DNA of 64,000 nucleotides, taken from contig CAWKEH010000007.1 in NCBI GenBank assembly GCA_963848595.1, forward strand, positions 53,231-117,230, read 5' to 3'. This stretch comes from an uncultured Alphaproteobacteria bacterium. GTDB taxonomy: Bacteria; Pseudomonadota; Alphaproteobacteria; Acetobacterales; Acetobacteraceae. The position numbers and the translations under genes were made by a program. Positions within the stretch are counted from its first letter, which is position 1, and each line of letters starts with the position of its first letter. A model generated the notes under the pieces. That model ran no database searches, was not told where the DNA came from, and saw nothing but the letters and a program-made list of their open reading frames with translations. Shown piece after piece: positions 6,566-53,907 of the stretch.

Positions 6566-8620
6566 GTGGACGCCGATCCGCTCCTGCCTCTCCTCGCCCC
6601 TGTGACCAGCCTGCGCGGCGTCGGCCCGGAGACGGCGTCGCGTATCGAGCGGGTGGCCGGCGGCGTGCGGGTCATGGACCTGCTGCTGCACATGCCGGAG
6701 GGTTACGTTGATCGCCGGGCCAGTCCGCGGCGGCTCGCCGAGGCACATCCCGGCCAAGTCGTCACGGTCGAGGTCCAAGTCGTTCAGGTCGAGCCGGGAA
6801 CTGGCCGCCAGCCCTGGCGCGTCCGCTGCACGGACGGGACGGCGGGACTGCACCTCGTCTATTTCCACCAGCGCCCGCCACGCCACGCCACGCCCGGCGC
6901 GCGCCTGGTGGTCTCCGGCAAGCTCGACAGCTACGGCGGGCAGCTTCAGATGGACAAGCCGGATCACGTCCTCCTCGCTGCGCAGCGGCACCTGCTGCCG
7001 CCCGTCGAGCCGGTGTGGCCGCTGACCGCCCGGCTGTTCCCGAGCCAGCTCCGCGCCGCCCTGTGGAGCGCACTGGAGCGGGTGCCGACCCTCCCCGAAT
7101 GGCACGACCCGCACCTGATGCGGCGCGAGGACTGGCCGGGCTTCGCCGAGGCCCTACGCGAGGTGCAGGCGCCCACCGCGCCACCGCGCGAGGTCGCCCG
7201 GCAGCGCCTCGCCTACGACGAGCTGCTCGCCCACCAAGTGGCACTCGCCTACGTCCGCACGCGCGAGCGGCAGCGGCCTGGCCGATCCCTGCTCGGCGAC
7301 AACAGGCTGCGCGAGGCGGCGCTCGCCCGGTTCGGCCAACCGCTCACGCCTTCGCAAGAGCAAGCCTTCGCGGAGATCGACGAGGATCTGGGCGCCCCGC
7401 GCCGGATGCTGCGCCTCCTCCAAGGCGACGTGGGCAGCGGCAAGACGCTGGTAGCCCTGCTCGCCATGCTCCGCGCCGCCGAGGCGGGCGCCCAGGCCGC
7501 GATCATGGCGCCCACGGAAGTGCTGGCCCTGCAGCACCACCGCACGCTGACCCGGCTCTGCCCCATCCCGGTCGGGCTGCTCACCGGCTCGGTCAAGGGC
7601 GTCGCCCGGCGCAATTTGCTCATGCAGCTCGCCAACGGCAGCCTGAAGCTCGTCGTCGGCACGCACGCCTTGTTCCAGGAGAGCGTGCGCTTCCGGGACC
7701 TCGCCCTTGCCGTCATTGACGAGCAGCACCGGTTCGGCGTGGATCAGCGCCTCAGCCTCGGGGAGAAGGGCGAACGGACGGACGTTCTCGTGATGACCGC
7801 GACGCCGATCCCGCGCACGCTGCTGCTGACGCAGTGGGGCGAGATGGAGGTGAGCCGCCTCACTGAGAAGCCGGCCGGGCGGCAGCCGGTCCGCACGACC
7901 CTGCACTCGCTCGCCCTGGAAGAGGAATTGCTCGCCGGCATCGCCCGCGCCCTCGACCGGGGAGAGCAGATCTACTGGGTCTGCCCGCTCGTCGCCGAGA
8001 GCGAGCTGGTGGACCTCGCCGCGGCCGAGGCACGCTTCGCCATGCTGCACGAGCGGTTCGGCGACCGGATCGGCCTCGCGCACGGACGACAGGACGCGGC
8101 GGTGCGCGACGCGGCGCTCGCGCGGTTCGCGTCCGGGGACACGCGGCTGCTGGTCGCGACGACGGTGGTCGAGGTGGGCGTGGACGTGCCCGAGGCGAGC
8201 GTCATGGTCGTGGAGCACGCGGAGCGATTCGGCCTCGCCCAGCTTCACCAGCTCCGCGGCCGGGTCGGGCGCGGCGCGGCGCAGAGCTACTGCCTGCTGC
8301 TCCACGAGGACGGGCTGACGGACACGATGCGGCGGCGGCTCGCGCTGCTGCGCGACACCGAGGACGGATTCCTGATCGCCGACGAGGATTTCCGCCTGCG
8401 GGGCGGCGGCGAGTTGATGGGCAAGCGGCAGTCCGGGCTGCCGGGCTTCCGCGTCGCCGACCTCACCGTGCACGACGGATTGCTGCGCATGGCGCGGCAG
8501 GACGCGGCGGTGCTGCTGGAGCGCGACCCCAAGCTAGAGACGCCGCGCGGCCGGGCGATGCGGCTGCTGCTGCGGCTGTTCGAGCGGGGACCGGCGCTCA
8601 GGACGTTGGGGTCGGGTTAG
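6566..8620 (+). CDS. recG: ATP-dependent DNA helicase RecG
   Basis: Wedge domain plus helicase motifs (GDVGSGKTLVA, DEQHRFGV, TATPIPRT, QLHQLRGRVGRG). A GTG at 6566 gives the usual N-terminus (LLPLLAPVTSLRGVGP). The longer ORF from 6455 overlaps sdhE. Confidence 0.9.
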   Translation: MDADPLLPLLAPVTSLRGVGPETASRIERVAGGVRVMDLLLHMPEGYVDRRASPRRLAEAHPGQVVTVEVQVVQVEPGTGRQPWRVRCTDGTAGLHLVYFHQRPPRHATPGARLVVSGKLDSYGGQLQMDKPDHVLLAAQRHLLPPVEPVWPLTARLFPSQLRAALWSALERVPTLPEWHDPHLMRREDWPGFAEALREVQAPTAPPREVARQRLAYDELLAHQVALAYVRTRERQRPGRSLLGDNRLREAALARFGQPLTPSQEQAFAEIDEDLGAPRRMLRLLQGDVGSGKTLVALLAMLRAAEAGAQAAIMAPTEVLALQHHRTLTRLCPIPVGLLTGSVKGVARRNLLMQLANGSLKLVVGTHALFQESVRFRDLALAVIDEQHRFGVDQRLSLGEKGERTDVLVMTATPIPRTLLLTQWGEMEVSRLTEKPAGRQPVRTTLHSLALEEELLAGIARALDRGEQIYWVCPLVAESELVDLAAAEARFAMLHERFGDRIGLAHGRQDAAVRDAALARFASGDTRLLVATTVVEVGVDVPEASVMVVEHAERFGLAQLHQLRGRVGRGAAQSYCLLLHEDGLTDTMRRRLALLRDTEDGFLIADEDFRLRGGGELMGKRQSGLPGFRVADLTVHDGLLRMARQDAAVLLERDPKLETPRGRAMRLLLRLFERGPALRTLGSG

Positions 8621-8696: not shown

Positions 8697-9687
8697 TCAG
8701 ACGCCCTCGTAAACCAGTCTCGTGAAGAAGCCGGGGTCGATCACGAAATTGCCGAACTTGTCATCGAACGCGGCTGTCGGCTTGGCCGCGACAGTCTCAT
8801 CGCGCGAACGTCCCTGCTTCTTAAGCGCGGCGACCTTCTCGCGGATGGTGACGAGCATGTCGCGGAATTCCTTGAGCTCGGCCTTGGTGCCGACGGCTTT
8901 GCCGTGACCGGCAATGATAATGGTGTCGTCCGTCGTCGCGGCGAGGTTGGCGTCGGACGCCGCGATCATCCCGTCGATGCTACCGCCGGTCGAGTAGTCG
9001 ATGAACGGGTAGATGCCATTCCAGAAAGTGTCGGCCACGTGAACGACGTTTGCCTCTGTGAACGTCACAGAGATGTCGCTGTCGGTGTGCGCCGGGCCGT
9101 AATGCTTGAGCGCAATCGTCAACCCGTTGAGTCTGAGGCTACGCTCGCGGGCAAACACCTCGCTGGGAATTCCACCTGTCGGCAGCGGGAGGAAGTTGTA
9201 GTCCCAATCCTCCACGCGCTGTACCTGCGACAGGGTACTTGCGCGTGTTCTCCTGAGCTATGATCTTGGCGCCCGCCGCGTTGAGCCAAGCGTTGCCGTC
9301 GGTATGATCGAAGTGCCAGTGGGTGTTGATCAGGTGCGTGATCGGATCGGCGCCGAGGCCTGCGAGAGTCCTGGTCAGCTGCGGGCGTGAGACACCGATG
9401 CCGGCATCGATCAGCACCTTGCCGTCAGGGCCCGTCAGCACGGCGACGGCGCCGCCCGAACCTTCGAGCACGGCGATGTTGTCGCGTAGCTTGTGGGTGA
9501 TGATCGGCGACGCGGCGGCGCTGTCCTTGATCAGGCTGACGAGGCCGCGCGCCTCCGCGAACACCTGGCGTGGCGTGAGCCACGCTCCCGCGGCAGCCGC
9601 GCCGCCGACGCAGCAAAGGCAAAAGCCACGTCGAGACAGAAAACCTCTCCCTGGAACTCCCACGGCACCGTCGCTCCCGTCTCGCAT
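8697..9687 (-). pseudogene. MBL-fold metallo-hydrolase with Tat-like signal, interrupted by a frameshift near 9233-9235
   Basis: The N-terminal part (SRRGFCLCCVGGAAAAGAW, HWHFDHTDGN) lies at the end of ORF 9139..10680. The C-terminal part (HTDSD, GHG) lies in ORF 8697..9215. The frames switch at a CCC run. Confidence 0.7.
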
Positions 9688-17726: not shown

Positions 17727-20481
17727 CGTCGCTCTCGGGGGGGGTCTCGGGAACGATCTCCGGGACGCCCTCGCCGTCCGGGTCCACCACGAGCGACACG
17801 GTGGTCACGTGCTCGCCCTCGCCGACCCGGAACAGCATCACGCCCTGGCTCGCCCGGCCCGTGACGCGCACCTGGTCCACGGGCACGCGGATCAGGCGCC
17901 CGGCATCGGTCACGAGCATCACGTCGTCGCCGTCGCGGACCGGGAAGCTCGCCACGACGGCGGCGCCGTTGCCGTTGCGCGCGGCGAGCAGGATGTTGGT
18001 GATCCCCTGCCCGCCCCGGCCCGTCACGCGATAGTCGTAGGCCGACGACCGCTTGCCCAAGCCGCCGCTGGTCACGGTGAGCAGGATCTCCTCCTGCTCC
18101 GCCAGCTCCGCGACCCGCTCGGGCGGGAGCGTTATGTCGGCGACCTGCTCCCCCAGCTCCTCGGCCTCCGCAGCCACCTCGGCAGCGGGCTCGACGGAGG
18201 CCTCCTCCTCCACCCGGCGCCGGGCCTGGCGCAGGAAGGCGGCGCGCTCCTCCGTGGTGGCGTCCACGTGGCGCAGGATGGAGAGGCTGATCACCTCGTC
18301 CCTGCGTCCCAGCCGGATGCCGCGCACGCCCGAGCTGTCGCGCCCGCTGAACACGCGGAGTGCGTCGCTGGTCGCCTGGAACCGGATCGCCCGGCCCAGC
18401 TTTGTGGCGAGCAGCACGTCGTCGCCCTCGCGGCAGGTCGCGACGCCAATGAGGCGGTCGCCCTCATCAAGCTTCATGGCGATGAGGCCAGAGGCGCGCA
18501 CGTTGCGGAAGTCGGAGAGCTTGTTGCGCCGCACGCCGCCGCTCGTCGTCGCGAAGACGAGGTGCAGCCCCTCCCACAGCGTCTCGTCCTGGGGCAAGGG
18601 CAGCACGGCCGTCACCTCGTCGCCGCCCAGCTCCGGCAGCAGGTTCACGAGCGCCCGGCCCTTCGCCGCCGGGCTGGCCTCGGGCAGGCGCCAGACCTTC
18701 TCGCGATACGCCTTGCCGCCGCTGCTGAAGAACAGGACCCACTGGTGCGTGTGCGCGTTGAAGCTGCGCGTCACCACGTCGTCCCCGCGCGTCGTCGCCG
18801 CACTCCGGCCGCGGCCGCCGCGGTTCTGGGCGCGGAACACGTCGAGCGGCGTCCGCTTGATGAAGCCGTCGCGGGTGATGGTCACGACCATCTGGCCCGG
18901 CTCGATCAAACTCTCCTCGTCCTGGTCGGCGACCGCGTCCACGATCTGGGTGAGGCGCGGCGAGGCCAGCTCGGCGCGGACAGCCAGCATCTCGTCGCGC
19001 ATCACCTCCAGCCGCCGCGGGCGGCTCGCGAGGATGGCGAGCAGCTCCTCGATGCGCGCCGCGACCTCGGCCATCTCGGCCTGAATCTTCTCGCGTTCCA
19101 GCCCGGTGAGGCGTTGCAGGCGCAGGTCCAGGATGCCGCGGGCCTGGGTATCGGTGAGGCGCACGCGGCCGTCCACGACCTGGTTGCCGGTATCGGCCAC
19201 GAGCGCCAGCAGCGGCGCCACGTCGGCGACCGGCCAATCCCGCGCGAGCAGCGCCACCCGCGCCGTAGCCGCATCGGCGCTCGCGCGGATCAGCGCAATC
19301 ACCTCGTCGATGTTCGCGACCGCCAGCGCCAGGCCGATGAGCAGGTGTGCCCGGTCCCGCGCCTTCCCCAGCTCGAAGCGGCTGCGCCGGAGGATCACGT
19401 CCTCGCGGAAGGCGATGAAGCACTGCAGCGCGTCCTTGAGGCCCATCAGGCGCGGCCGCCCCTGGTCGAGCGCCAGCATGTTCACGCTGAATCCGGTCTG
19501 CAGCTGCGTGAAGCGATAGAGCTGGTTGAGCACCACCTCCGGCGTCGCGTCGCGCTTCAGCTCGATCACGATGCGCATGCCGTCGCGGTCGCTCTCGTCG
19601 CGGATGTCGGAGATGCCCTCGACCTGCTTGGCGCGCACCAGCTCGGCGATGCGCTCCTGCAGCGTCGCCTTGTTCACCTGATAGGGGATCTCGGTGACGA
19701 CGATGGCGTCGCGGTCGCGCCTGATCTCCTCGATGCTCGCCTTCGCGCGGAGGATGACGCTCCCGCGCCCGGTCTCGAAGGCGCTGCGGATGCCGGCCCG
19801 GCCCAGGATCAGCCCGCCCGTCGGGAAATCGGGGCCGGGGACGATCTGCATGAGCTGGTCGAGCGAGACGCCGGGCTCGGCGATGATCGCGAGCGTGGCG
19901 TCTATGATCTCGGTCGGGTTATGGGTCGGGATGTTGGTCGCCATGCCCACGGCGATGCCGTTGGCGCCGTTGATCAGCAGGTTCGGGTAGGCGGCGGGCA
20001 GGACACGCGGCTCCTCCGCGCTGTCGTCGTAGTTCGGCCCGAAATCCACCGTGTCCTTGTCGATGTCCGCGAGCAGGTGGGTGCTGGCGCGGGCGAGGCG
20101 GACCTCGGTGTAGCGCATGGCCGCGGGCGGGTCGCCGTCCACGGAGCCGAAATTGCCCTGGCCGTCGATGAGCGGCACGCGCATGGAGAAGGACTGCGCC
20201 ATGCGCACGAGCGCGTCATAGATCGAGGCGTCGCCATGGGGGTGATACTTGCCCATCACGTCGCCGACGACGCGCGCCGACTTGCGGTGCGGCTTGTCCG
20301 CCGTGTAGCCGCTCTCCTGCATGGCGTAGAGGATGCGCCGATGGACGGGCTTGAGCCCGTCGCGGGCGTCCGGCAGCGCGCGGCTGACGATGACGCTCAT
20401 TGCGTAGTCGAGGTAGGAGCGCCGCATCTCCTCCTCGAGCATCACGGGGGGTGATGCCGGCGTCTCTGTGGTATCACTCAC
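17719..20481 (-). CDS. gyrA: DNA gyrase subunit A
   Basis: 920-aa ORF with the N-terminal [27 protein letters not shown], the active-site region AAMRYTE, and C-terminal beta-pinwheel repeats. Confidence 0.96.
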
Positions 20482-20534
20482 GATCAGTCTGCCTAGTCCT
20501 GCCTGCTTATGGTCCTACCGAACGGCTAACCCGT

Positions 20535-20640
20535 TCCATCACGCCCGGCCTGGTACCGGGCATCCATGTCTCCGAGATGGAGGAACATACCCTGACGCGG
20601 AGCGCCGAATCTGGCCTCCGCCACGGCATCTTACATGGTG
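20535..20640. repeat. short GC-rich intergenic repeat (family translating as PGLVPGIH)
   Basis: cacgcccggcctggtaccgggcatccatgtc resembles, in inverted orientation, gtcatgcccggactcgatccgagcctccacgac at 31190..31310. Confidence 0.5.
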
Positions 20641-20869
20641 TCTCAACCTTCCGGAACCAACCTAGGCTGTCACAGTCGCTGTGCTCAGAACTGATTTGGG
20701 CATAACCGAGAAAGAGGGTCGAGGACGGCCGAGCCTTCGCCATCACGTGTTCTGATCAAGCTGGTTGCAGATTGCTGTACAAGCCTTTCAGCCGCTTTCC
20801 CCGCAGAATTTCCAATGGGGAGACGTGAATTCTCGTTGACAAGACCGGCATCCCAAGGCAAATTGTAGA

Positions 20870-20897
20870 CCGCCCCGCCAAAGATATGGCGGGGCGG
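20870..20897. repeat. GC-rich hairpin left of the DndB-like cassette
   Basis: ccgccccgcc-aaagatat-ggcggggcgg is a perfect 10-bp stem. It shares the GGCGGGGC/GCCCCGCC core with the hairpin at 22654..22691. Confidence 0.7.
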
Positions 20898-20964
20898 CCC
20901 TGAAACCACGGACGGGTATGTCCTGGAAAGCCTTCCTGTCCGCAGCCATTGAGGGATATGATGA

Positions 20965-22269
20965 GTGCTTCCAGCTCGATCAAGCTGCCTATCACCTGCA
21001 TCCGCGGGCATTCGGGCCCGCATATGCAATCGTTCCAGACAGTTTGCCTTCCAAGCCAGCTTCTCTCGGTACCTTGGCCACGACCCGCGGCCGAGCAACT
21101 GGCGCAACCTGCCATCGACCCTTCGCCAGGCGTACGAGGAATATCAGCGCAAGACGAAACTTGCTCGTGCCGAGAGTATCAGCAAGTATATTCGCGAGCG
21201 GCTCTCGCCCAATGCAGTCCCTGAACATGTCGGCGGCTTTCCAAGCCTGAGCATCGGTGTTACCGACGTACCCGTCTTCGAACCGCTCCGCCAGCGTGCG
21301 GGCGTGACAATTGCGGATGGTGTTCCTTTGGACGATTCCGTTGGAACACTTTACCTCGACGTTGGCGCGAAGCACGTCCGCATGTTGCTCGACGGTCTGG
21401 CTCGGTACACAGGCGCCATGGAGTTGGTCGATGCGGGCGAGGATGTTGATGACTGGTTCTCGTTCGCGCTGACGATTTACGCCCCGACGGCCTCCCGAGG
21501 CTCTCTCAACCTGCGGACGTTGTCCCAACTCTTCTTCGACTTCAACTATCGCGTGACGCGCGTGCCGCCATCCCTAGCGCTCGCACTGGATCAAGCTGGG
21601 GTATACTCGCAGATTGTAGAGTGGCTGAAGGATCAGCCCGTCATCACAGACAATGGGGGTATGCAGCAATCAGGCGCTAGCCTCGGGACGAAGTCCACCG
21701 CCTTCGTCGTGCGCCGCGTCCTACATGGGTTCGTCACGATCGCTGCCGAAGGCGAGAAGGCGCTCAACAAGGGTTCGAAGAACCAGGACATCCGCAACCC
21801 GCGAACCACGCAAGAGAACATGTGGAACACTGCGGAGAAGATCCGCGACTTCCTCTCCCGCTTCGCGACCGCTATGGGAAATCGTTTCGTGGAGACCGAC
21901 AGCATTCACCTGACCCGGCTCGGATGGGAAGCAATCGGCATGATCGTGCACGATGCCGTCATCCGTGCCGATATGTCGGAGGCCGACCTCGACCGCTGCG
22001 TCGCTGCGCTGGCAGCAATCGATTGGTCGCGGACCAACCGCGACTGGTTCGGAATGATTGGCATCGCGGAGCAGGATGAGCAGGGTAATCCGATCCTCGA
22101 CGCGAACGGTCGCGAGCGTGTCGTCATTACTGGTGGCAAGGGTGACCAGGGCTTGCGGCGTGCGATCAGTTACTTGCGCCGGAAGACAGGCGTGCGCCGG
22201 GCGTCGAAGAGCGAAATCGCCGCATTCGGCGATGAGGAGCAGCAGGACTTGCTTGAGGAGGTTGCGTAA
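20965..22269 (+). CDS. DndB / DGQHR-domain-like (ParB/Srx fold) protein with degenerate DGLAR motif
   Basis: 434-aa ORF in a visibly less GC-rich segment. The order of motifs mirrors the DndB/DGQHR family: QRKTKLARAESISKYI, FPSLSIGV, MLLDGLARY where DGQHR normally sits, then SQLFFDFNYRVTRVPPSLALALD where the Q-F-D-N / S-L-D block sits. Confidence 0.6.
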   Translation: MLPARSSCLSPASAGIRARICNRSRQFAFQASFSRYLGHDPRPSNWRNLPSTLRQAYEEYQRKTKLARAESISKYIRERLSPNAVPEHVGGFPSLSIGVTDVPVFEPLRQRAGVTIADGVPLDDSVGTLYLDVGAKHVRMLLDGLARYTGAMELVDAGEDVDDWFSFALTIYAPTASRGSLNLRTLSQLFFDFNYRVTRVPPSLALALDQAGVYSQIVEWLKDQPVITDNGGMQQSGASLGTKSTAFVVRRVLHGFVTIAAEGEKALNKGSKNQDIRNPRTTQENMWNTAEKIRDFLSRFATAMGNRFVETDSIHLTRLGWEAIGMIVHDAVIRADMSEADLDRCVAALAAIDWSRTNRDWFGMIGIAEQDEQGNPILDANGRERVVITGGKGDQGLRRAISYLRRKTGVRRASKSEIAAFGDEEQQDLLEEVA

Positions 22270-22649
22270 TGACGTTCACCGGAGGAACGCTCCCTGGACC
22301 TCACGCGGGAGATATGTCGCCGCTCACCGCAGCCCTGAGACCGAAAATCCGTTTGGAACCCGCACAACGGGCGCAAGCGCGGCGGTTGCGTAAGAAGGGT
22401 TGGGAGATTGTACGGATAGCTGCACGGCTGGGTGCCCCAGTCGAGGAGGTCGAGCTTGCGCTCACCACGATCCGCACCCTTAACCCGTCGCCCACGCGAA
22501 AGTCCTTAAACGGCACCGTGGAGGCTCACGCGTTCGTCTTGGGCGAAGCCGAGCACGGCGAGGCGATATGGCAGACGATAGATCGCCTCTTTGCTGAACT
22601 CGCCTTCCGCCGCGCTGCTGCGGGCGCGCCTATAAGCCGGCCGAGGTGA
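22269..22649 (+). CDS. small helix-turn-helix protein coupled to the DndB-like gene
   Basis: 126-aa ORF whose start overlaps the upstream stop (TAATG). It has an HTH-like segment, AQARRLRKKGWEIVRIAARLGAPVEEVELAL. Confidence 0.55.
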   Translation: MTFTGGTLPGPHAGDMSPLTAALRPKIRLEPAQRAQARRLRKKGWEIVRIAARLGAPVEEVELALTTIRTLNPSPTRKSLNGTVEAHAFVLGEAEHGEAIWQTIDRLFAELAFRRAAAGAPISRPR

Positions 22650-22653
22650 AGTC

Positions 22654-22691
22654 GGTTTGGCGGGGCTCGCACGATGCAGCCCCGCCAACCG
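22654..22691. terminator. hairpin right of the cassette (terminator-like, no T tract)
   Basis: ttggcggggc-tcgcacgatgca-gccccgccaa is a perfect 10-bp stem lying 5 nt after the HTH gene stop. Confidence 0.55.
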
Positions 22692-22786
22692 AAACCGGCC
22701 AGGGTTCCTTTCGCAGACCGTTGCCTTTTACAGAAGTTCGTACTTCACGTCAGTTGCCATGCGAGCGCAACCATCTCGTTTCGACT

Positions 22787-22870
22787 TAAAACGGTATCTC
22801 GTCGTCCAGGTCGCTGCCGCCGCTCGGCGCCTCCCACGACGGGCCGCCACGATCGCCGCCATCGCCCGCG
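22787..22870 (-). pseudogene. 3'-terminal fragment of an ssb gene
   Basis: The minus strand reads ...[20 protein letters not shown]-stop. 58 of 66 nt are identical to the 3' end of the intact ssb at 25337..25402. Confidence 0.75.
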
Positions 22871-22918
22871 GCGCCCGATGCACGCACGACCCCCCGACGC
22901 ACGCGGGGACGGACGCGC

Positions 22919-23302
22919 CTACGCCACCTCCCGAAGCTTGGCCCGCGCCGCCTCGGTCAGGAAGCGCGAGCAATTCGTGGTCGCCCGGTCTATGGCGTCG
23001 AGCACATCCTGGGGAAGCATCACGTTGACCCGCACGGCGGGAGCCGGCTTAGCGGGCACATCCACCAGGAAGGCCACGGCCTCGCGGTTCTCGGGCGTGG
23101 CCATCACCGCGTCCAGGCCGGACGGCTCCGGGACCGCCTCGCCGTCCTCCATGCCCTCGACGTGCAGCGCCAGCGGCTCAGCCGCCATGCGGCGCGCCTC
23201 GTCCAGCGTCCGGCCCGCGGTCACGCAACCAGGGAAATCGGGGAAGTCCACCCCGTAGTCGCTCGCCCCGTCCTTGCGCAGCAGCGCGATGTAAGCGGTC
23301 AT
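22919..23302 (-). CDS. hicB: HicB-family antitoxin (no adjacent hicA)
   Basis: 127 aa. The N-terminus is YIALLRKDGASDYGVDFPDFPGCVTAGRTLDEA (HicB fold) and the C-terminus is RHH-like, VNVMLPQDVLDAIDRA. Confidence 0.8.
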   Translation of the reverse strand: MTAYIALLRKDGASDYGVDFPDFPGCVTAGRTLDEARRMAAEPLALHVEGMEDGEAVPEPSGLDAVMATPENREAVAFLVDVPAKPAPAVRVNVMLPQDVLDAIDRATTNCSRFLTEAARAKLREVA

Positions 23303-23457
23303 AGTCTCGGCCCTCTCAACTCAACCGTCTAGTATGCCGGATCAGAAGTTCGTCGGCCCTTGCCGGCGTGCCTCTGATCGGTCGGCATGCTGAAAACAAA
23401 GAGTCTAGTGGCTCGAAATCGGAGTTCGCCAGCATGGCGAACTTCGAATTCGGGACA

Positions 23458-23775
23458 CTAGGCCGCTGCCTGCGCCGCCGCGACCGCCTCCGCGACCGCC
23501 TCCGGGCTGCGCGCGATTACCAGCAGCAGCGTGCGCGCGGCTGGATCGGGGCGGCGCAGCCCCTGCTCCCAGTCGCGCACCGCCGCGACCGCGAGGCCGA
23601 ACCGCTCTGCGAACGCCGGGCGGCTCAAGCCCATCCGCTCCCGTGTGGCGCGCACGTCCACCGCGCCGGGCGGCAGGTGCACGCGCGCCGGCTCCATCTC
23701 GCCGCGCAGGATGGCGGCGGCTTCCTGCATGGAGGCGATCAGCTCGCTGGTGATGTCGGTCGGCTCGGTTGCCAT
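23458..23775 (-). CDS. XRE-family HTH antitoxin (HigA-like)
   Basis: 105 aa with an HTH (GLSRPAFAERFGLAVAAVRDWEQGLRRPDPAARTLL). It lies immediately downstream of the RelE/HigB-like toxin. Confidence 0.8.
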   Translation of the reverse strand: MATEPTDITSELIASMQEAAAILRGEMEPARVHLPPGAVDVRATRERMGLSRPAFAERFGLAVAAVRDWEQGLRRPDPAARTLLLVIARSPEAVAEAVAAAQAAA

Positions 23776-23779
23776 CGCT

Positions 23780-24118
23780 TTATCTCCTTTGCTGCGCGGC
23801 CGCCTTGAACTCGGCCACGACCGCCGCCATCGCCCGCGTCTGCTCCGGCGTCGGATTCACCAGTTCATTCTTGCCGTAGATCAATAAGGCGAGGATCGGC
23901 ATCGCTTCGTCGAACACGTAGTAGATCACGCGGAATGCACCGCGCTTGCCGCGCCCCTCCGGGGCGAAGCGCAGCTTCCGCACGCCGCCGGTGCCGGGGA
24001 TCACGTCGCCCGCGAGGGGATCGCTCGCCAGCACTGTGACCAAGTCCGCCCGGTCCTCGCGAGAGAGCAGAGCGTCCGCTCGCCGGGAGAAGATCGGCGT
24101 CTCGAGGACCGCGTGCAT
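23780..24118 (-). CDS. RelE/HigB-like type II toxin
   Basis: The GDVIPGTGGVRKLRFAPEGRGKRGAFRVIYYV...YGKNE signature, with the toxin gene upstream of the antitoxin (hig-type order). The start is taken at MHAVLETPIF. Confidence 0.8.
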   Translation of the reverse strand: MHAVLETPIFSRRADALLSREDRADLVTVLASDPLAGDVIPGTGGVRKLRFAPEGRGKRGAFRVIYYVFDEAMPILALLIYGKNELVNPTPEQTRAMAAVVAEFKAAAQQRR

Positions 24119-24175
24119 CTCCGCTCCTATACAGCACTGCTGTATTTCCTTCAATTACGAAATACCGCGCGAGCA

Positions 24176-24470
24176 TCAGGGGAGCATCCCCTCCAACTCC
24201 CTCATACTCTCCCTGATCTCGTCCTCCAGCCTCACCAACTCCGCCAAGATCTTCCGCGGCGCGCGGTGCACGACCTCCTCCCGCGCCGCTTCCTTGTAGC
24301 GGTTCAGCGACAAATCCCACCCGGCCGCCGCGATCTCCGCCTTCGGCACGACGAAGCTCCGCGCCGTGCGCGGCCTCTCCCGCTCCGCCTCGTCGCGCTG
24401 CGCTTAGCGCGCCAGCACGTCCGGTAGCTTGTTCTTGGCGTGCTCGGCCTCGTCTAGCGCCTCGCTCGAA
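24176..24470 (-). pseudogene. C-terminal remnant of a type I restriction-modification methyltransferase (HsdM)
   Basis: The minus-strand frame reads ...SFVVPKAEIAAAGWDLSLNRYKEAAREEVVHRAPRKILAELVRLEDEIRESMRELEGMLP-stop, a typical HsdM tail. There is an in-frame TAA at 24404..24406 and no methylase core upstream. Confidence 0.6.
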
Positions 24471-24594
24471 CCCCCCATCGCGCTCGCACGAGCAGAAACC
24501 CAACCGTGGCAATCGCGTCACAGCGCGCGCTCACGGCCCGACGCGATCACGCAGCACTTGACGCCCCTGGGCCACAAACCCCCAATTCGCCCCC

Positions 24595-25302
24595 ATGTCC
24601 TCCACCCCCGCCCTCCTCGACCCAGCCGACCGCGCCCGCCAGCGCGACGAGGACGCGCAATACTACCGCCAGGTCCTGCACAAGTTCATCGCCATGGGCA
24701 CCGACCTCGCCGAGGCCGTCCACCGCCAAGCCCTGGCAGAACCCGCCGCCGCCGCCCAAAGCGCTCCCCAGACCCAGCCCGAGGACGAGCCCGCAGCACC
24801 CAGCCCCAGCCCGAGCCAAGCGATCACCTTCGACTGCCTCGCCCGCACCGTCCGCCGCACCATCGCGCTTGCCCGCAAGCTCTCCGAGCCCGCCCGCGAG
24901 GCGCCCAGCCCGAAGCTCCACCTGAAGGAGTGCCCAAATGAGCGCCGCACGGACCGCGCCGAGACAGCCGCCCTCCATGCCGAGCCGTGGGCCGAGCCGT
25001 GCGAGCGCCCCGAGGGAGCCGATTGCGACGCCGACGAGGACCTTGACGACGACCTCGACGAGCAGTCACTCGCCGACCTCATCGCGAGCCTGCGCCACGA
25101 CACCGGTCTCGCCACCCTGACCGACGCCGAGCTCCGGCAGCATCCCACGCCCCCAAAGGCGCAAGGAAGCGCATACGAGGGCGTCCCAAGCGAGAGGTGC
25201 GACCGCTGCGCCCGGACCTCCAGAGCAAGCACACGAGCAGGGAGCACTGACCACCCCGACTCGGCACCGTCACGCCCCGGCACCGGCCCGCCGGACCCCT
25301 GA
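24595..25302 (+). CDS. hypothetical acidic protein
   Basis: 235-aa ORF with plausible coding character (helical N-terminus, a low-complexity linker, and a DADEDLDDDLDEQSLADL acidic patch). The antisense ORF is Ser/Arg-rich junk. Confidence 0.45.
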   Translation: MSSTPALLDPADRARQRDEDAQYYRQVLHKFIAMGTDLAEAVHRQALAEPAAAAQSAPQTQPEDEPAAPSPSPSQAITFDCLARTVRRTIALARKLSEPAREAPSPKLHLKECPNERRTDRAETAALHAEPWAEPCERPEGADCDADEDLDDDLDEQSLADLIASLRHDTGLATLTDAELRQHPTPPKAQGSAYEGVPSERCDRCARTSRASTRAGSTDHPDSAPSRPGTGPPDP

Positions 25303-25336
25303 TCCGGGTCCCCGGCCGCGAAAAATCTCCCGAACC

Positions 25337-25852
25337 TTAGAACGGTATCTCGTCGTCCAGATCGCTGCCGCCGCCCGGCGCATCCCAGGACGGAGCGCCA
25401 CCGCGCCCGGCGCCGGCCGGCGCCCGCTCGCGCGGGGCGGAGGGGCGCGACTGGAAGCCGCCGCCCTCGCCACCGAAGCTGCCCGCGCCCTCGCTGTCGC
25501 GGTTGCTGTCGAGCAAGGTCAGCTCGCCGCGGAAGCGGTCAATCACCACCTCCGTCGTGTATTTCTCCTGGCCCTGCTGGTCGGTCCACTTCCGGGTCTG
25601 CAAGCTGCCCTCGACATAGACCTTGCGGCCCTTGCGCAGGAACCGCTCCGCCACGTCCGCCAGCCGCTCGTTGAAGATGACGACCTTGTGCCACTCCGTG
25701 CGCTCCTTGCGCTCGCCGGAGGCCTTGTCGTTCCACGTGTCGCTCGTGGCGAGCGTCAGGTTCACCACCTTGCCGCCGTTCTGCATAGTGCGGCTCTCCG
25801 GGTCCTTGCCCAGATTGCCCACCAGGATCACCTTGTTCACCGAACCAGCCAT
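25337..25852 (-). CDS. ssb: single-stranded DNA-binding protein
   Basis: The N-terminus is [19 protein letters not shown], followed by an OB fold, a Gly-rich linker and the acidic tip DLDDEIPF. It is divergent from uvrA. Confidence 0.95.
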
Positions 25853-39486: not shown

Positions 39487-39756
39487 TACCGGCGAATCAT
39501 TGCGGAGCGATTAACAGTGCTCCGTTCTCCAGCGAGATTGCCCGAGGCTGCAAGAAGCCGCGTGCGAGCTCGCTAGGGGGGTGATGCTGGCAGGTGGACC
39601 GTGTGCCCCGCATACTCCTCAGTGCGGGGATAGCGCGTCTCGATAGCCCGATCGACGGCAGGCGTGTAGCGGCTATCGTAGAGGGGCATCCCACGTTCTC
39701 CCTGCGTGATGACGAAGGCGAACGCGCAAGCGTCAATCATGCTGACGATCCGCCGC

Positions 39757-52986: not shown

Positions 52987-53907
52987 ATGGCATCGCTGAT
53001 CCTGCACCACTACGACCTGTCGCCGTTCAGCGAGAAGGTCAGGCTGGCCTTCGGCTATAAGGACCTCGACTGGCACGCGGTCGAGGTGCCGATCTGGCCG
53101 CCCAAGCCGAACCTCATGCCGCTCACGGCTGGGTATCGCCGCGCCCCGGTGCTGCAGGTCGGCGCCGACGTGTATTGCGACACGCTGCTCATCCTGCGCG
53201 AGATTGACCGGCGCCATCCCGAGCCGACCCTCTACCCCGACGGGCAGCGCGGCCTCGCATCGGCCCTGAGCTGGTGGGCGGACAAGACGACCTTCGTGCC
53301 GGCCGCGACACTGACCACGAGCATCATCGGCGACAACATCCCGGCCGAGTTCATCGAAGAGCGTAAGACCTTCATGAACCACGATTTCAGCAAGGCCGCC
53401 TCGCTCAGGGAGCTGCCGCTCAATCGCCAGCGCATGCACGCGCACATGACGTGGCTGGCAGACATGATGCGGGACGGACGTCCGTTCATGCTGGGTGCAA
53501 AAGCCTCGGCGGCCGATCTCTCCGCCTATCATACGATCTGGTTCGCCCGGAAGAACGGCGGCGCGGCAGCCGAGGCCATGCTTCCCCTCGATTCTCTGCG
53601 CGGCTGGATGGACCGCATTGCCGCCTTCGGCCACGGGCGCCGGCACGAGATGAGCCCCGAGCAGGCCCTGGCGGCGGCGCGCAACTCCGAGCCTGACGCG
53701 CCCCAGATCGCCGCCGACGCGGACCCGTCGGGGCTGAAGCCCGGCCAAGCGGTCGTGGTACGCACCGACGACACCGGCCGCGACCCGATCCAGGGCACCC
53801 TCGTCGCCGCCGACGCCGAGGAGGTCGTGATCCGGCAGGAGAACGACCGGGTCGGCATAGTTAATATCCACTTCCCTCGCGCCGGCTACGACGTGCTCGC
53901 TGCCTGA
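52987..53907 (+). CDS. glutathione S-transferase family protein
   Basis: N-terminal thioredoxin-like GST fold (LHHYDLSPFSEKVRLAF, APVLQVGADVYCDT) with a longer C-terminal extension. Confidence 0.7.
   Translation: MASLILHHYDLSPFSEKVRLAFGYKDLDWHAVEVPIWPPKPNLMPLTAGYRRAPVLQVGADVYCDTLLILREIDRRHPEPTLYPDGQRGLASALSWWADKTTFVPAATLTTSIIGDNIPAEFIEERKTFMNHDFSKAASLRELPLNRQRMHAHMTWLADMMRDGRPFMLGAKASAADLSAYHTIWFARKNGGAAAEAMLPLDSLRGWMDRIAAFGHGRRHEMSPEQALAAARNSEPDAPQIAADADPSGLKPGQAVVVRTDDTGRDPIQGTLVAADAEEVVIRQENDRVGIVNIHFPRAGYDVLAA

Follow-up and report, generated by a model that had tools for sequence, protein, structure and literature searches.

What does a DndB-like gene do away from any DNA-modification cluster? 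The question is raised by two adjacent open reading frames (ORFs) inserted between gyrA and ssb in an uncultured alphaproteobacterium of the Acetobacteraceae (assembly GCA_963848595.1, contig CAWKEH010000007.1), which we analyzed in a stretch of 64,000 nucleotides (positions 53,231 to 117,230 of the contig, hereafter the window). A preliminary description had read the pair as a 434-aa protein of the DndB/DGQHR type with a degenerate signature motif, followed by a 126-aa helix-turn-helix (HTH) protein, in a defense-island neighborhood. Our best reading, held with moderate confidence and drawn from analogy with DndB, is that the locus represents a mobile, self-contained cassette built around a DndB-type autoregulator. 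The two ORFs, as annotated, are arranged as follows:

20965-22269, plus strand: larger ORF, DndB-like, 434 aa, GTG start
22256-22261, plus strand: Shine-Dalgarno sequence AGGAGG of the 126-aa gene
22269-22649, plus strand: smaller ORF, the partner gene, 126 aa, ATG start

The stop codon of the DndB-like ORF and the start codon of the 126-aa ORF overlap (TAATG), and this layout was present just as first described. The pair also lies, as noted before, in DNA of lower GC content than its surroundings (0.57-0.63 at the cassette region versus ~0.70 in the flanks), and GC at the third codon position is likewise low, with 0.73 in the DndB-like gene and 0.68 in the small one, compared with 0.95 for gyrA. 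Because both measures fall below those of the flanks and of gyrA, the two genes are foreign DNA, and the locus is a cassette gained by horizontal transfer.

Family membership and the variant signature motif

The 434-aa ORF matched the Pfam DndB family PF14072, which we take to belong to the ParB/Srx-like superfamily (ParB clan), with E = 3.5e-14 and 53.1 bits over residues 56-365 (gathering threshold 29.1 bits), and a precomputed PF14072 hit was present in all 62 homologues. The more restrictive models were not reached: the DndB equivalog TIGR03233 gave 29 bits against a cut-off of 328, over residues 183-364 only, and the DGQHR-domain model TIGR03187 gave 33.7 bits against 58.85. The DndB/DGQHR likeness proposed earlier was thus borne out by the Pfam profile and not by these two models. 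Pfam revealed no significant domain beyond DndB in the large protein, and no C-terminal HNH domain (DUF1524). In a search of PADLOC-DB v2 the large protein matched only the DndB model, weakly (30.7 bits), and the small protein matched nothing, in agreement with the initial view that the pair belongs to no described system.

The Gln-His of the DGQHR signature is replaced in the window protein, which had led to the suggestion of a degenerate site:

21391-21405, plus strand: DGLAR motif, residues 143-147, subfamily counterpart of DGQHR, with D, G and R invariant

Among 129 full-length members of the family, however, DGLAR was found in 56, DGLGR in 36 and DGLQR in four, the rest having other DG[LIVM]xR variants; more than 100 of the 129 carry DG[LIVM][AG]R, and DGQHR is restricted to the two most distant hits. 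YQR and GQLFxDxN are invariant in the family, along with the D, G and R of DGxxR. DG[LIVM][A/G]R is therefore a fixed signature of a rare subfamily rather than a product of decay. When 1.84 billion cluster representatives were searched with a profile of the family, 292 clusters reached E<=1e-3, and 110 of these E<=1e-30; the PHROGs database and the INPHARED phage genomes returned no match, and PLSDB returned a single plasmid. The family is rare, and so distant from canonical DndB that the profile search hardly picks up the latter.

In related ParB and DUF262 proteins, the Gln-His positions replaced here are associated with hydrolysis of nucleoside triphosphates (NTPs). The DUF262 proteins GmrSD, SspE, DndI and BrxU have a ParB-like N-terminal module with YQR and DGxxR (PMC11662687). 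The window protein appears to share this module, but they combine DGQQR with a C-terminal DUF1524 HNH nuclease, whereas the window protein has the DndB domain only.

The frameshifted copy and its small partner gene

Of the 62 relatives found, 57 are 59-76% identical and ~420-435 aa long. The alignment of homologues revealed a conserved N-terminus, MxSxxxSIKLPIxCIRGRSGPHLQxFQTxCxPSQLISxLGHDPRS, that is absent from the 434-aa ORF of the window. Three-frame translation, the family alignment and tblastn of a one-base-corrected protein placed this segment in a different frame:

20958-21071, plus strand: native N-terminal coding segment, 38 codons, MMSASSSIKLPITCIRGHSGPHMQSFQTVCLPSQLLSV, in a frame that differs from that of the annotated ORF
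21072-21073, plus strand: frameshift site, one additional C (GTA-C-CTT) relative to homologues
21073-22269, plus strand: main part of the DndB-like gene (398 codons plus TAA), read in the same frame as the annotated ORF and otherwise intact

The native start is the ATG at 20958 (or 20961), and reading from it would hit a stop at 21224. Alignment with the DNA of the syntenic locus L001 (loci carrying family members are given L numbers) showed a single-base gap in L001 exactly at 21072/21073, and deletion of one base gave a protein that aligned from residue 1 with L001, L005, L006 and other loci in tblastn. Residues 1-36 of the 434-aa ORF are thus out of frame and spurious, and the protein as first read is a frameshift artifact. 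The same reading, with the spurious start, is also found in the NCBI-sourced protein P0001, such that the public annotation of the 434-aa protein, with its false N-terminus, is corrected here. In a model of an intact orthologue, the segment lost through the frameshift forms two strands and a helix (predicted local distance difference test score, pLDDT, ~95). Because the 398 codons beyond the frameshift show no damage, the extra base must have arisen either recently or in assembly, which makes the window copy most likely a recent pseudogene or an assembly error; as it stands, the DndB-like copy of the window has probably lost its function. Programmed frameshifting was also considered and rejected as unlikely, since there is no slippery sequence at the site and the orthologues are all in frame.

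The 126-aa ORF is a genuine gene, translationally coupled to the one upstream, and by comparison with L001 it has 37, 26 and 84 substitutions at codon positions 1, 2 and 3, respectively. Only nine homologues of its product were found in 5.8 billion proteins, and a DndB-like gene lies immediately upstream of every partner copy whose locus was read. In addition to L001, where the partner occupies the gyrA-ssb interval, copies were found in five further settings: L050, where the gene adjoins DarT-Macro near gyrB and was missed by gene calling (9290-9661); L052, where it is broken by two frameshifts on a 2x-coverage contig (9299-9665); L053, on a 41-kb circular element; L054/L055, on a 15-kb RepA/MobA plasmid; and L056. 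Automated gene calls under-report the pairing, given that the L050 copy was uncalled and the L052 copy frameshifted. No partner gene was found behind the DndB-like gene in L002/7, L003/4, L005, L006, L051 or ~27 more distant loci. The partnership first proposed from the window alone thus recurs in other genomes, with the two genes found together there, but is confined to one sub-clade. The two-gene module is real within that sub-clade, and the core unit of the family is the DndB-like gene alone.

The small protein did not match any Pfam or NCBIfam family above cut-off. A profile built from its nine homologues matched the HTH protein 2lvs_A (E = 2.7e-4, positions 23-67), and in an AlphaFold2 model the core helices at residues 31-68 reached a pLDDT of ~90, the whole model averaging 64. 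The Foldseek list for this model consisted mostly of HTH domains, every one at E>0.4. Together, these results suggest an HTH-like core at approximately residues 30-68.

Upstream palindromes and a proposed autoregulator

The region upstream of the native start contains two palindromes, a promoter-like hexamer and a conserved leader:

20799-20820, no strand: distal operator-like palindrome O1, CCCCGC-AGAATTTCCA-ATGGGG, 22 bp, N10 spacing
20836-20841, plus strand: -35-like hexamer TTGACA, downstream of O1, with no convincing -10
20870-20897, no strand: proximal palindrome O2, perfect 10-bp hairpin CCGCCCCGCC-AAAGATAT-GGCGGGGCGG
20898-20957, plus strand: conserved leader, AACC(A/G)CG..ACGGG..GGAAGC..CGCAGC in close homologues
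20951-20954, plus strand: GAGG, the Shine-Dalgarno sequence of the leader

Across the family the palindrome follows the pattern T-CCCCG(C/T)-N10/11-(G/A)CGGGG-A. Of 35 non-redundant loci, 28 have it <=230 nt upstream and two more have it further upstream (30/35), whereas the background frequency is 0.004 per 230 nt (10 hits in 566 kb). The pattern is kept even in members that are only 32-39% identical, from Bradyrhizobium, Sphingomonas, Brevundimonas and Planctomycetota. Of 34 sites, 22 have N10 spacing and eight N11, and the centers are A/T-rich and often not self-complementary. Within the window alone the pattern is not above chance (two matches versus 2.5 expected), so it is significant only because its position is conserved from locus to locus. 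The other window match, at 39606-39629 (CCCCGCATACTCCTCAGTGCGGGG), has N12 spacing and is consistent with chance.

The distal palindrome lies at -110 to -185 in 28 of the 35 loci, and in 12 of these 28 a TTGAC/TTGC-like hexamer follows within 24 nt. In the window, the right arm of O1 has one mismatch to the consensus (G/A)CGGGG, and the O2 core, CCCCGC-N10-GCGGGG at 20873-20894, is an exact match. Close members likewise have a second copy, a perfect hairpin ~85 nt before the start codon; among the proximal hairpins of L001, L002, L003, L006 and L050-L053 the stems differ between loci and stay complementary. Distant members have an additional single half-site, TGCGGGGA, inside the presumed promoter spacer, and the AT-rich cyanobacterial plasmid pEu4 has two direct CCCCGCACA-type repeats upstream of the operon. 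In this plasmid (Euhalothece, L057), the direct repeats CCCCCGCACA and TTCCCGCACA at 6950-7000 lie upstream of a P63C-domain gene, which directly precedes the stand-alone 'DndB'; P63C may be another facultative partner.

When copies from differing contexts are compared, their DNA homology begins ~155 nt 5´ of the start codon, at the distal palindrome; the cis-element is conserved and moves along with the gene. Two copies of the cassette, L005 and L006, are found on one chromosome of an Acidocella metagenome-assembled genome (OY843765.1); they are 92.6% identical over 1385 nt, their homology beginning ~155 nt upstream of the start codon, and a 2.58-kb segment, 99.96% identical, lies inverted near both copies and is probably an insertion sequence element. 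The leader may be a 5´-untranslated region element. RNAalifold gave a weak result for it (-3.7 kcal/mol, on a poor alignment), an Rfam scan of 20400-23400 returned only a chance miRNA hit, and the divergent L054 and L056 have a related hairpin followed by an ACGGG segment. We also considered the small protein as the binder of the palindromes and rejected it, as the motif is present in many loci without the small gene.

The arrangement resembles that of DndB itself. The DndB of Salmonella enterica, the only characterized member of the family, gives footprints on its own promoter at two palindromes, TACG-N10-CGTA, located at approximately -72 to -40 and at approximately -14 to +4 near the transcription start (PMC4507180), and its autoregulation has been reported to be modulated by ATP (Xia 2019, cited in PMC10853773). 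A DndB-like protein has also been found to bind ATP and GTP. The window protein shares PF14072 and a similar size with DndB of S. enterica and Streptomyces, YQR, DGxxR and QxFxDxN follow one another in the same order, and in both cases two inverted repeats with a 10-nt spacer precede the gene, the first lying upstream of the promoter and the second at the start site. In contrast to DndB, the window gene comes without dndCDE, dndA or modification genes and fails TIGR03233; the subfamily has DGL(A/G)R instead of DGQHR and operator-like arms of CCCCG(C/T) instead of TACG; and it is stand-alone and mobile, with a sub-clade that has its own 126-aa partner. DpdB of the 7-deazaguanine Dpd system is likewise a DndB-like protein of the ParB superfamily, but no DpdA/TGT or other dpd genes lie near the subfamily loci, and DpdB is described as the ATPase partner of a transglycosylase and not as a solitary gene. 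The novelty appears to lie in the subfamily itself, which is DndB-like and stand-alone and combines a variant motif with an operator-like site of its own and a novel small partner.

By homology and from the cis-element, we propose DNA binding, autoregulation and modulation by nucleotides. The DndB-like protein would be a sequence-specific DNA-binding autorepressor, as DndB is, and a dimer would bind the two 22-bp palindromes T-CCCCG(C/T)-N10-(G/A)CGGGG-A, one upstream of the -35-like hexamer and the other over the transcription start region; these putative operators would move wherever the gene moves. Its N-terminal ParB-like module, in which YQR and DG..R are kept, would bind a nucleotide that modulates DNA binding and would hydrolyze it poorly, since the Gln-His is replaced by Leu-Ala/Gly. 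In the sub-clade that includes the window, the 126-aa HTH-like protein would be co-expressed, probably as a co-regulator. Of the possibilities raised in the preliminary description, that of a regulator is therefore favored by the operator-like palindrome and the DndB-like architecture, and the appeal to a defense-island neighborhood is not sustained (see below).

Several observations weigh against the autoregulator. Structure prediction, proposed at the outset as a check, gave a mixed outcome. For an AlphaFold2 model of the intact orthologue P0004 (pLDDT 84.9), Foldseek found nothing with E<0.5 in the PDB, and a profile hidden Markov model had no match among PDB sequences. The BFVD matches were weak: an unnamed protein (E = 1.2e-4) and a Marseillevirus DndB-like protein (4.4e-3), with ParB/Spo0J only at E>0.2; a 'DNA-sulfur modification-associated protein' among the best speaks for the family assignment. 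No solved structure resembles the model, and support for the ParB-like fold thus comes from the Pfam profile and these weak BFVD hits. A scan for consensus sigma-70 promoters found no full promoter in the window, and the enrichment of the palindrome (nominal binomial P ~1e-60) is inflated by the relatedness of the loci. In O2 and in some copies of O1 the hairpin is perfect and its loop variable, the L022 hairpin resembles an intrinsic terminator, and L054 and L056 have different upstream repeats. The palindromes could also be explained by a host factor, or as hairpins with a purely structural function. Finally, a gene regulating only itself has no evident selective value, and some further activity must therefore exist.

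Genomic settings and other readings

The immediate neighbors of the pair are gyrA, coaD, HicB, XRE, a RelE-like gene, ssb and uvrA, and the remaining ORFs of the window are housekeeping genes such as mfd, recG, EF-G and CopA. None of the 50 other ORFs matches any PADLOC model at 1e-10 and no dnd, ssp or dpd partner genes are present in the window, which confirms the reported lack of the usual partners. At L001 the order is gyrA, DndB-like gene, small gene, ssb and uvrA, with nothing else in between. What L001 lacks is a 2.55-kb segment (22851-25335) enclosed in the window by a 66-nt direct repeat (22785-22850 and 25336-25401, 89% identical) that duplicates the 3´ end of ssb (...DLDDEIPF* tail). 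Its cargo consists of HicB, an XRE/RelE-like pair, a 235-aa Pro/Ala-rich ORF and what is left of a type I M-subunit gene; this remnant (24176-24346, 56 aa) corresponds to the end of type I M-subunit methyltransferases (55-59% identity, E ~1e-10, tblastn, plasmids) and does not match the type I HsdM of L051. The toxin-antitoxin and restriction-modification (RM) neighbors first noted are thus real genes, but belong to a later insertion, separate from the cassette, and the supposed defense-island neighborhood is due to this unrelated segment.

The 2.55-kb segment looks like an integrated element aimed at the ssb 3´ end, in which no integrase remains. Its 235-aa Pro/Ala/Asp-rich ORF (24595-25302) has a host-like third-codon-position GC of 0.85 and matches no Pfam family. 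No intact HicA lies upstream of HicB, where there is only a 39-aa ORF (23316-23435), and an inverted repeat at 23405-23461, with 27-nt arms that are 85% complementary and a 3-nt loop, lies between the HicB-like and XRE antitoxin genes.

In other genomes the DndB-like gene is found in a variety of settings. It adjoins a BglII-like endonuclease with MT-A70 in L003/4, L052 and L053, a type I RM system and integrases in L051, Abi_2 and TIR_2 on a plasmid in L054/55, and DarT and Macro in L050. In L057 it is on a cyanobacterial plasmid without dnd genes, and some copies lie between housekeeping genes such as polA. The BglII-like endonuclease and MT-A70 are accompanied by a 68-80-aa gene, the set being divergent to the DndB-like gene (L003/L004, 5656-7143; L052, 6065-7810; L053, 4764-6503); the small gene of this set was uncalled in L003. 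Because the distal palindrome in L052 and L053 falls in the divergent promoter region shared with the RM operon, the DndB-like protein might, to judge from its position, also regulate that operon. Among 96 flanking ORFs in 27 genomes examined with Pfam and PADLOC there was no recurrent partner, the most frequent being generic ATPases (4-5 of 96), with scattered defense genes, and dndCDE and dndA/iscS were not seen in the gene lists or among the 25 most frequent families of ~40 family loci.

These settings bear on the best surviving alternative, which we nonetheless regard as unlikely, namely a minimal one- or two-gene anti-phage or anti-plasmid module in which the DndB-like protein, as a ParB/Srx-type NTPase or nuclease, would sense foreign DNA or nucleotides or attack them, under regulation by the HTH protein. 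The defense genes beside L051, L003/4, L052, L053, L054/55 and L050 would fit, as would AbiV near the L053 copy, scattered hits to the cyclic-oligonucleotide-based anti-phage signaling system (CBASS), Cas1 and DrmD near distant members, and the presence of the cassette on plasmids and islands; ParB-superfamily proteins in conflict systems have, moreover, been proposed as possible nucleases or nucleotide-degrading effectors (PMC10853773). Yet Pfam detected no effector domain beyond DndB, PADLOC matched no system, and all through the subfamily Leu-Ala/Gly stands in place of the Gln-His that related families have and that is tied to NTPase activity there. The 96 neighbors are mostly housekeeping genes, with no recurrent defense partner, the toxin-antitoxin and RM genes of the window came with the unrelated later insertion, and the window copy tolerates a frameshift.

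A bolder extension, to which we assign a still lower likelihood, would make the DG[LIVM][A/G]R proteins self-contained, mobile ParB-fold DNA switches, each with a cognate CCCCGCA-type palindrome and nucleotide-gated loading. Once loaded, they would affect other DNA and could, for instance, silence competing mobile genetic elements or exclude them. If true, this would be a new single-gene system for defense or for competition between mobile elements, or a two-gene system where the HTH partner is present.

Two further readings seem improbable, and about equally so. One is a clamp or silencer akin to ParB or KorB, for which the palindrome would be a parS-like loading site from which spreading or sliding silences or organizes nearby DNA, the small HTH protein being KorA-like. 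Like KorB-KorA and ParB-parS, the cassette has a ParB-superfamily protein, a cognate-type palindrome adjoining the gene and, in the sub-clade, a small HTH-like partner; the plasmids on which some copies are found also encode relaxases and replication functions, and O1 lies within the divergent promoter region common to the RM operon in L052 and L053. The phosphate-motif residues are important in ParB. In the DndB-like protein, however, they are replaced, and there is no significant match to these systems in sequence or structure. ParA is not adjacent, the plasmids having their own ParA with ParG or a ribbon-helix-helix protein elsewhere, many copies are chromosomal and lie between housekeeping genes, and the small partner is absent from most members. 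The analogy with these systems, KorA included, is speculative and concerns function only.

The other is that the palindromes are structural hairpins, an insulating terminator and a 5´-untranslated stem-loop, and that the protein has a non-regulatory function. Perfect stems of 9-16 bp in several loci, the proximal stems that vary between loci yet stay complementary and the T-run after the L022 stem would all be expected of such hairpins. They would not account for conservation of the arm CCCCG(C/T) itself across phyla, at 32-100% protein identity, for the fixed N10/11 spacing around centers that are often non-complementary, for the isolated half-sites in promoter spacers or for the direct, not inverted, repeats of pEu4, and there is no match to an Rfam family.

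An orphaned regulator that survived the loss of a dnd, dpd or ssp modification cluster would suit a DndB-family member, DndB being dispensable in about half of dnd systems (PMC10853773), but we rejected a dnd-cluster remnant as largely refuted and extremely improbable: such partners are missing from the entire subfamily, as judged from more than 40 loci, the motif and the operator-like site are conserved features of its own, and the window protein falls far below the cut-offs of TIGR03233 (29 versus 328 bits) and TIGR03187 (33.7 versus 58.85 bits).

The autoregulatory cassette remains the reading we prefer, and it extends DndB-family proteins beyond DNA-modification clusters, to a rare stand-alone subfamily in plasmids, islands and chromosomal sites. 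If the protein acts on foreign DNA, it would be a new minimal system; otherwise, it would be one more autoregulated accessory gene. In either case, the defined 22-bp palindrome makes the role of a DndB/ParB-like fold outside phosphorothioation directly testable.

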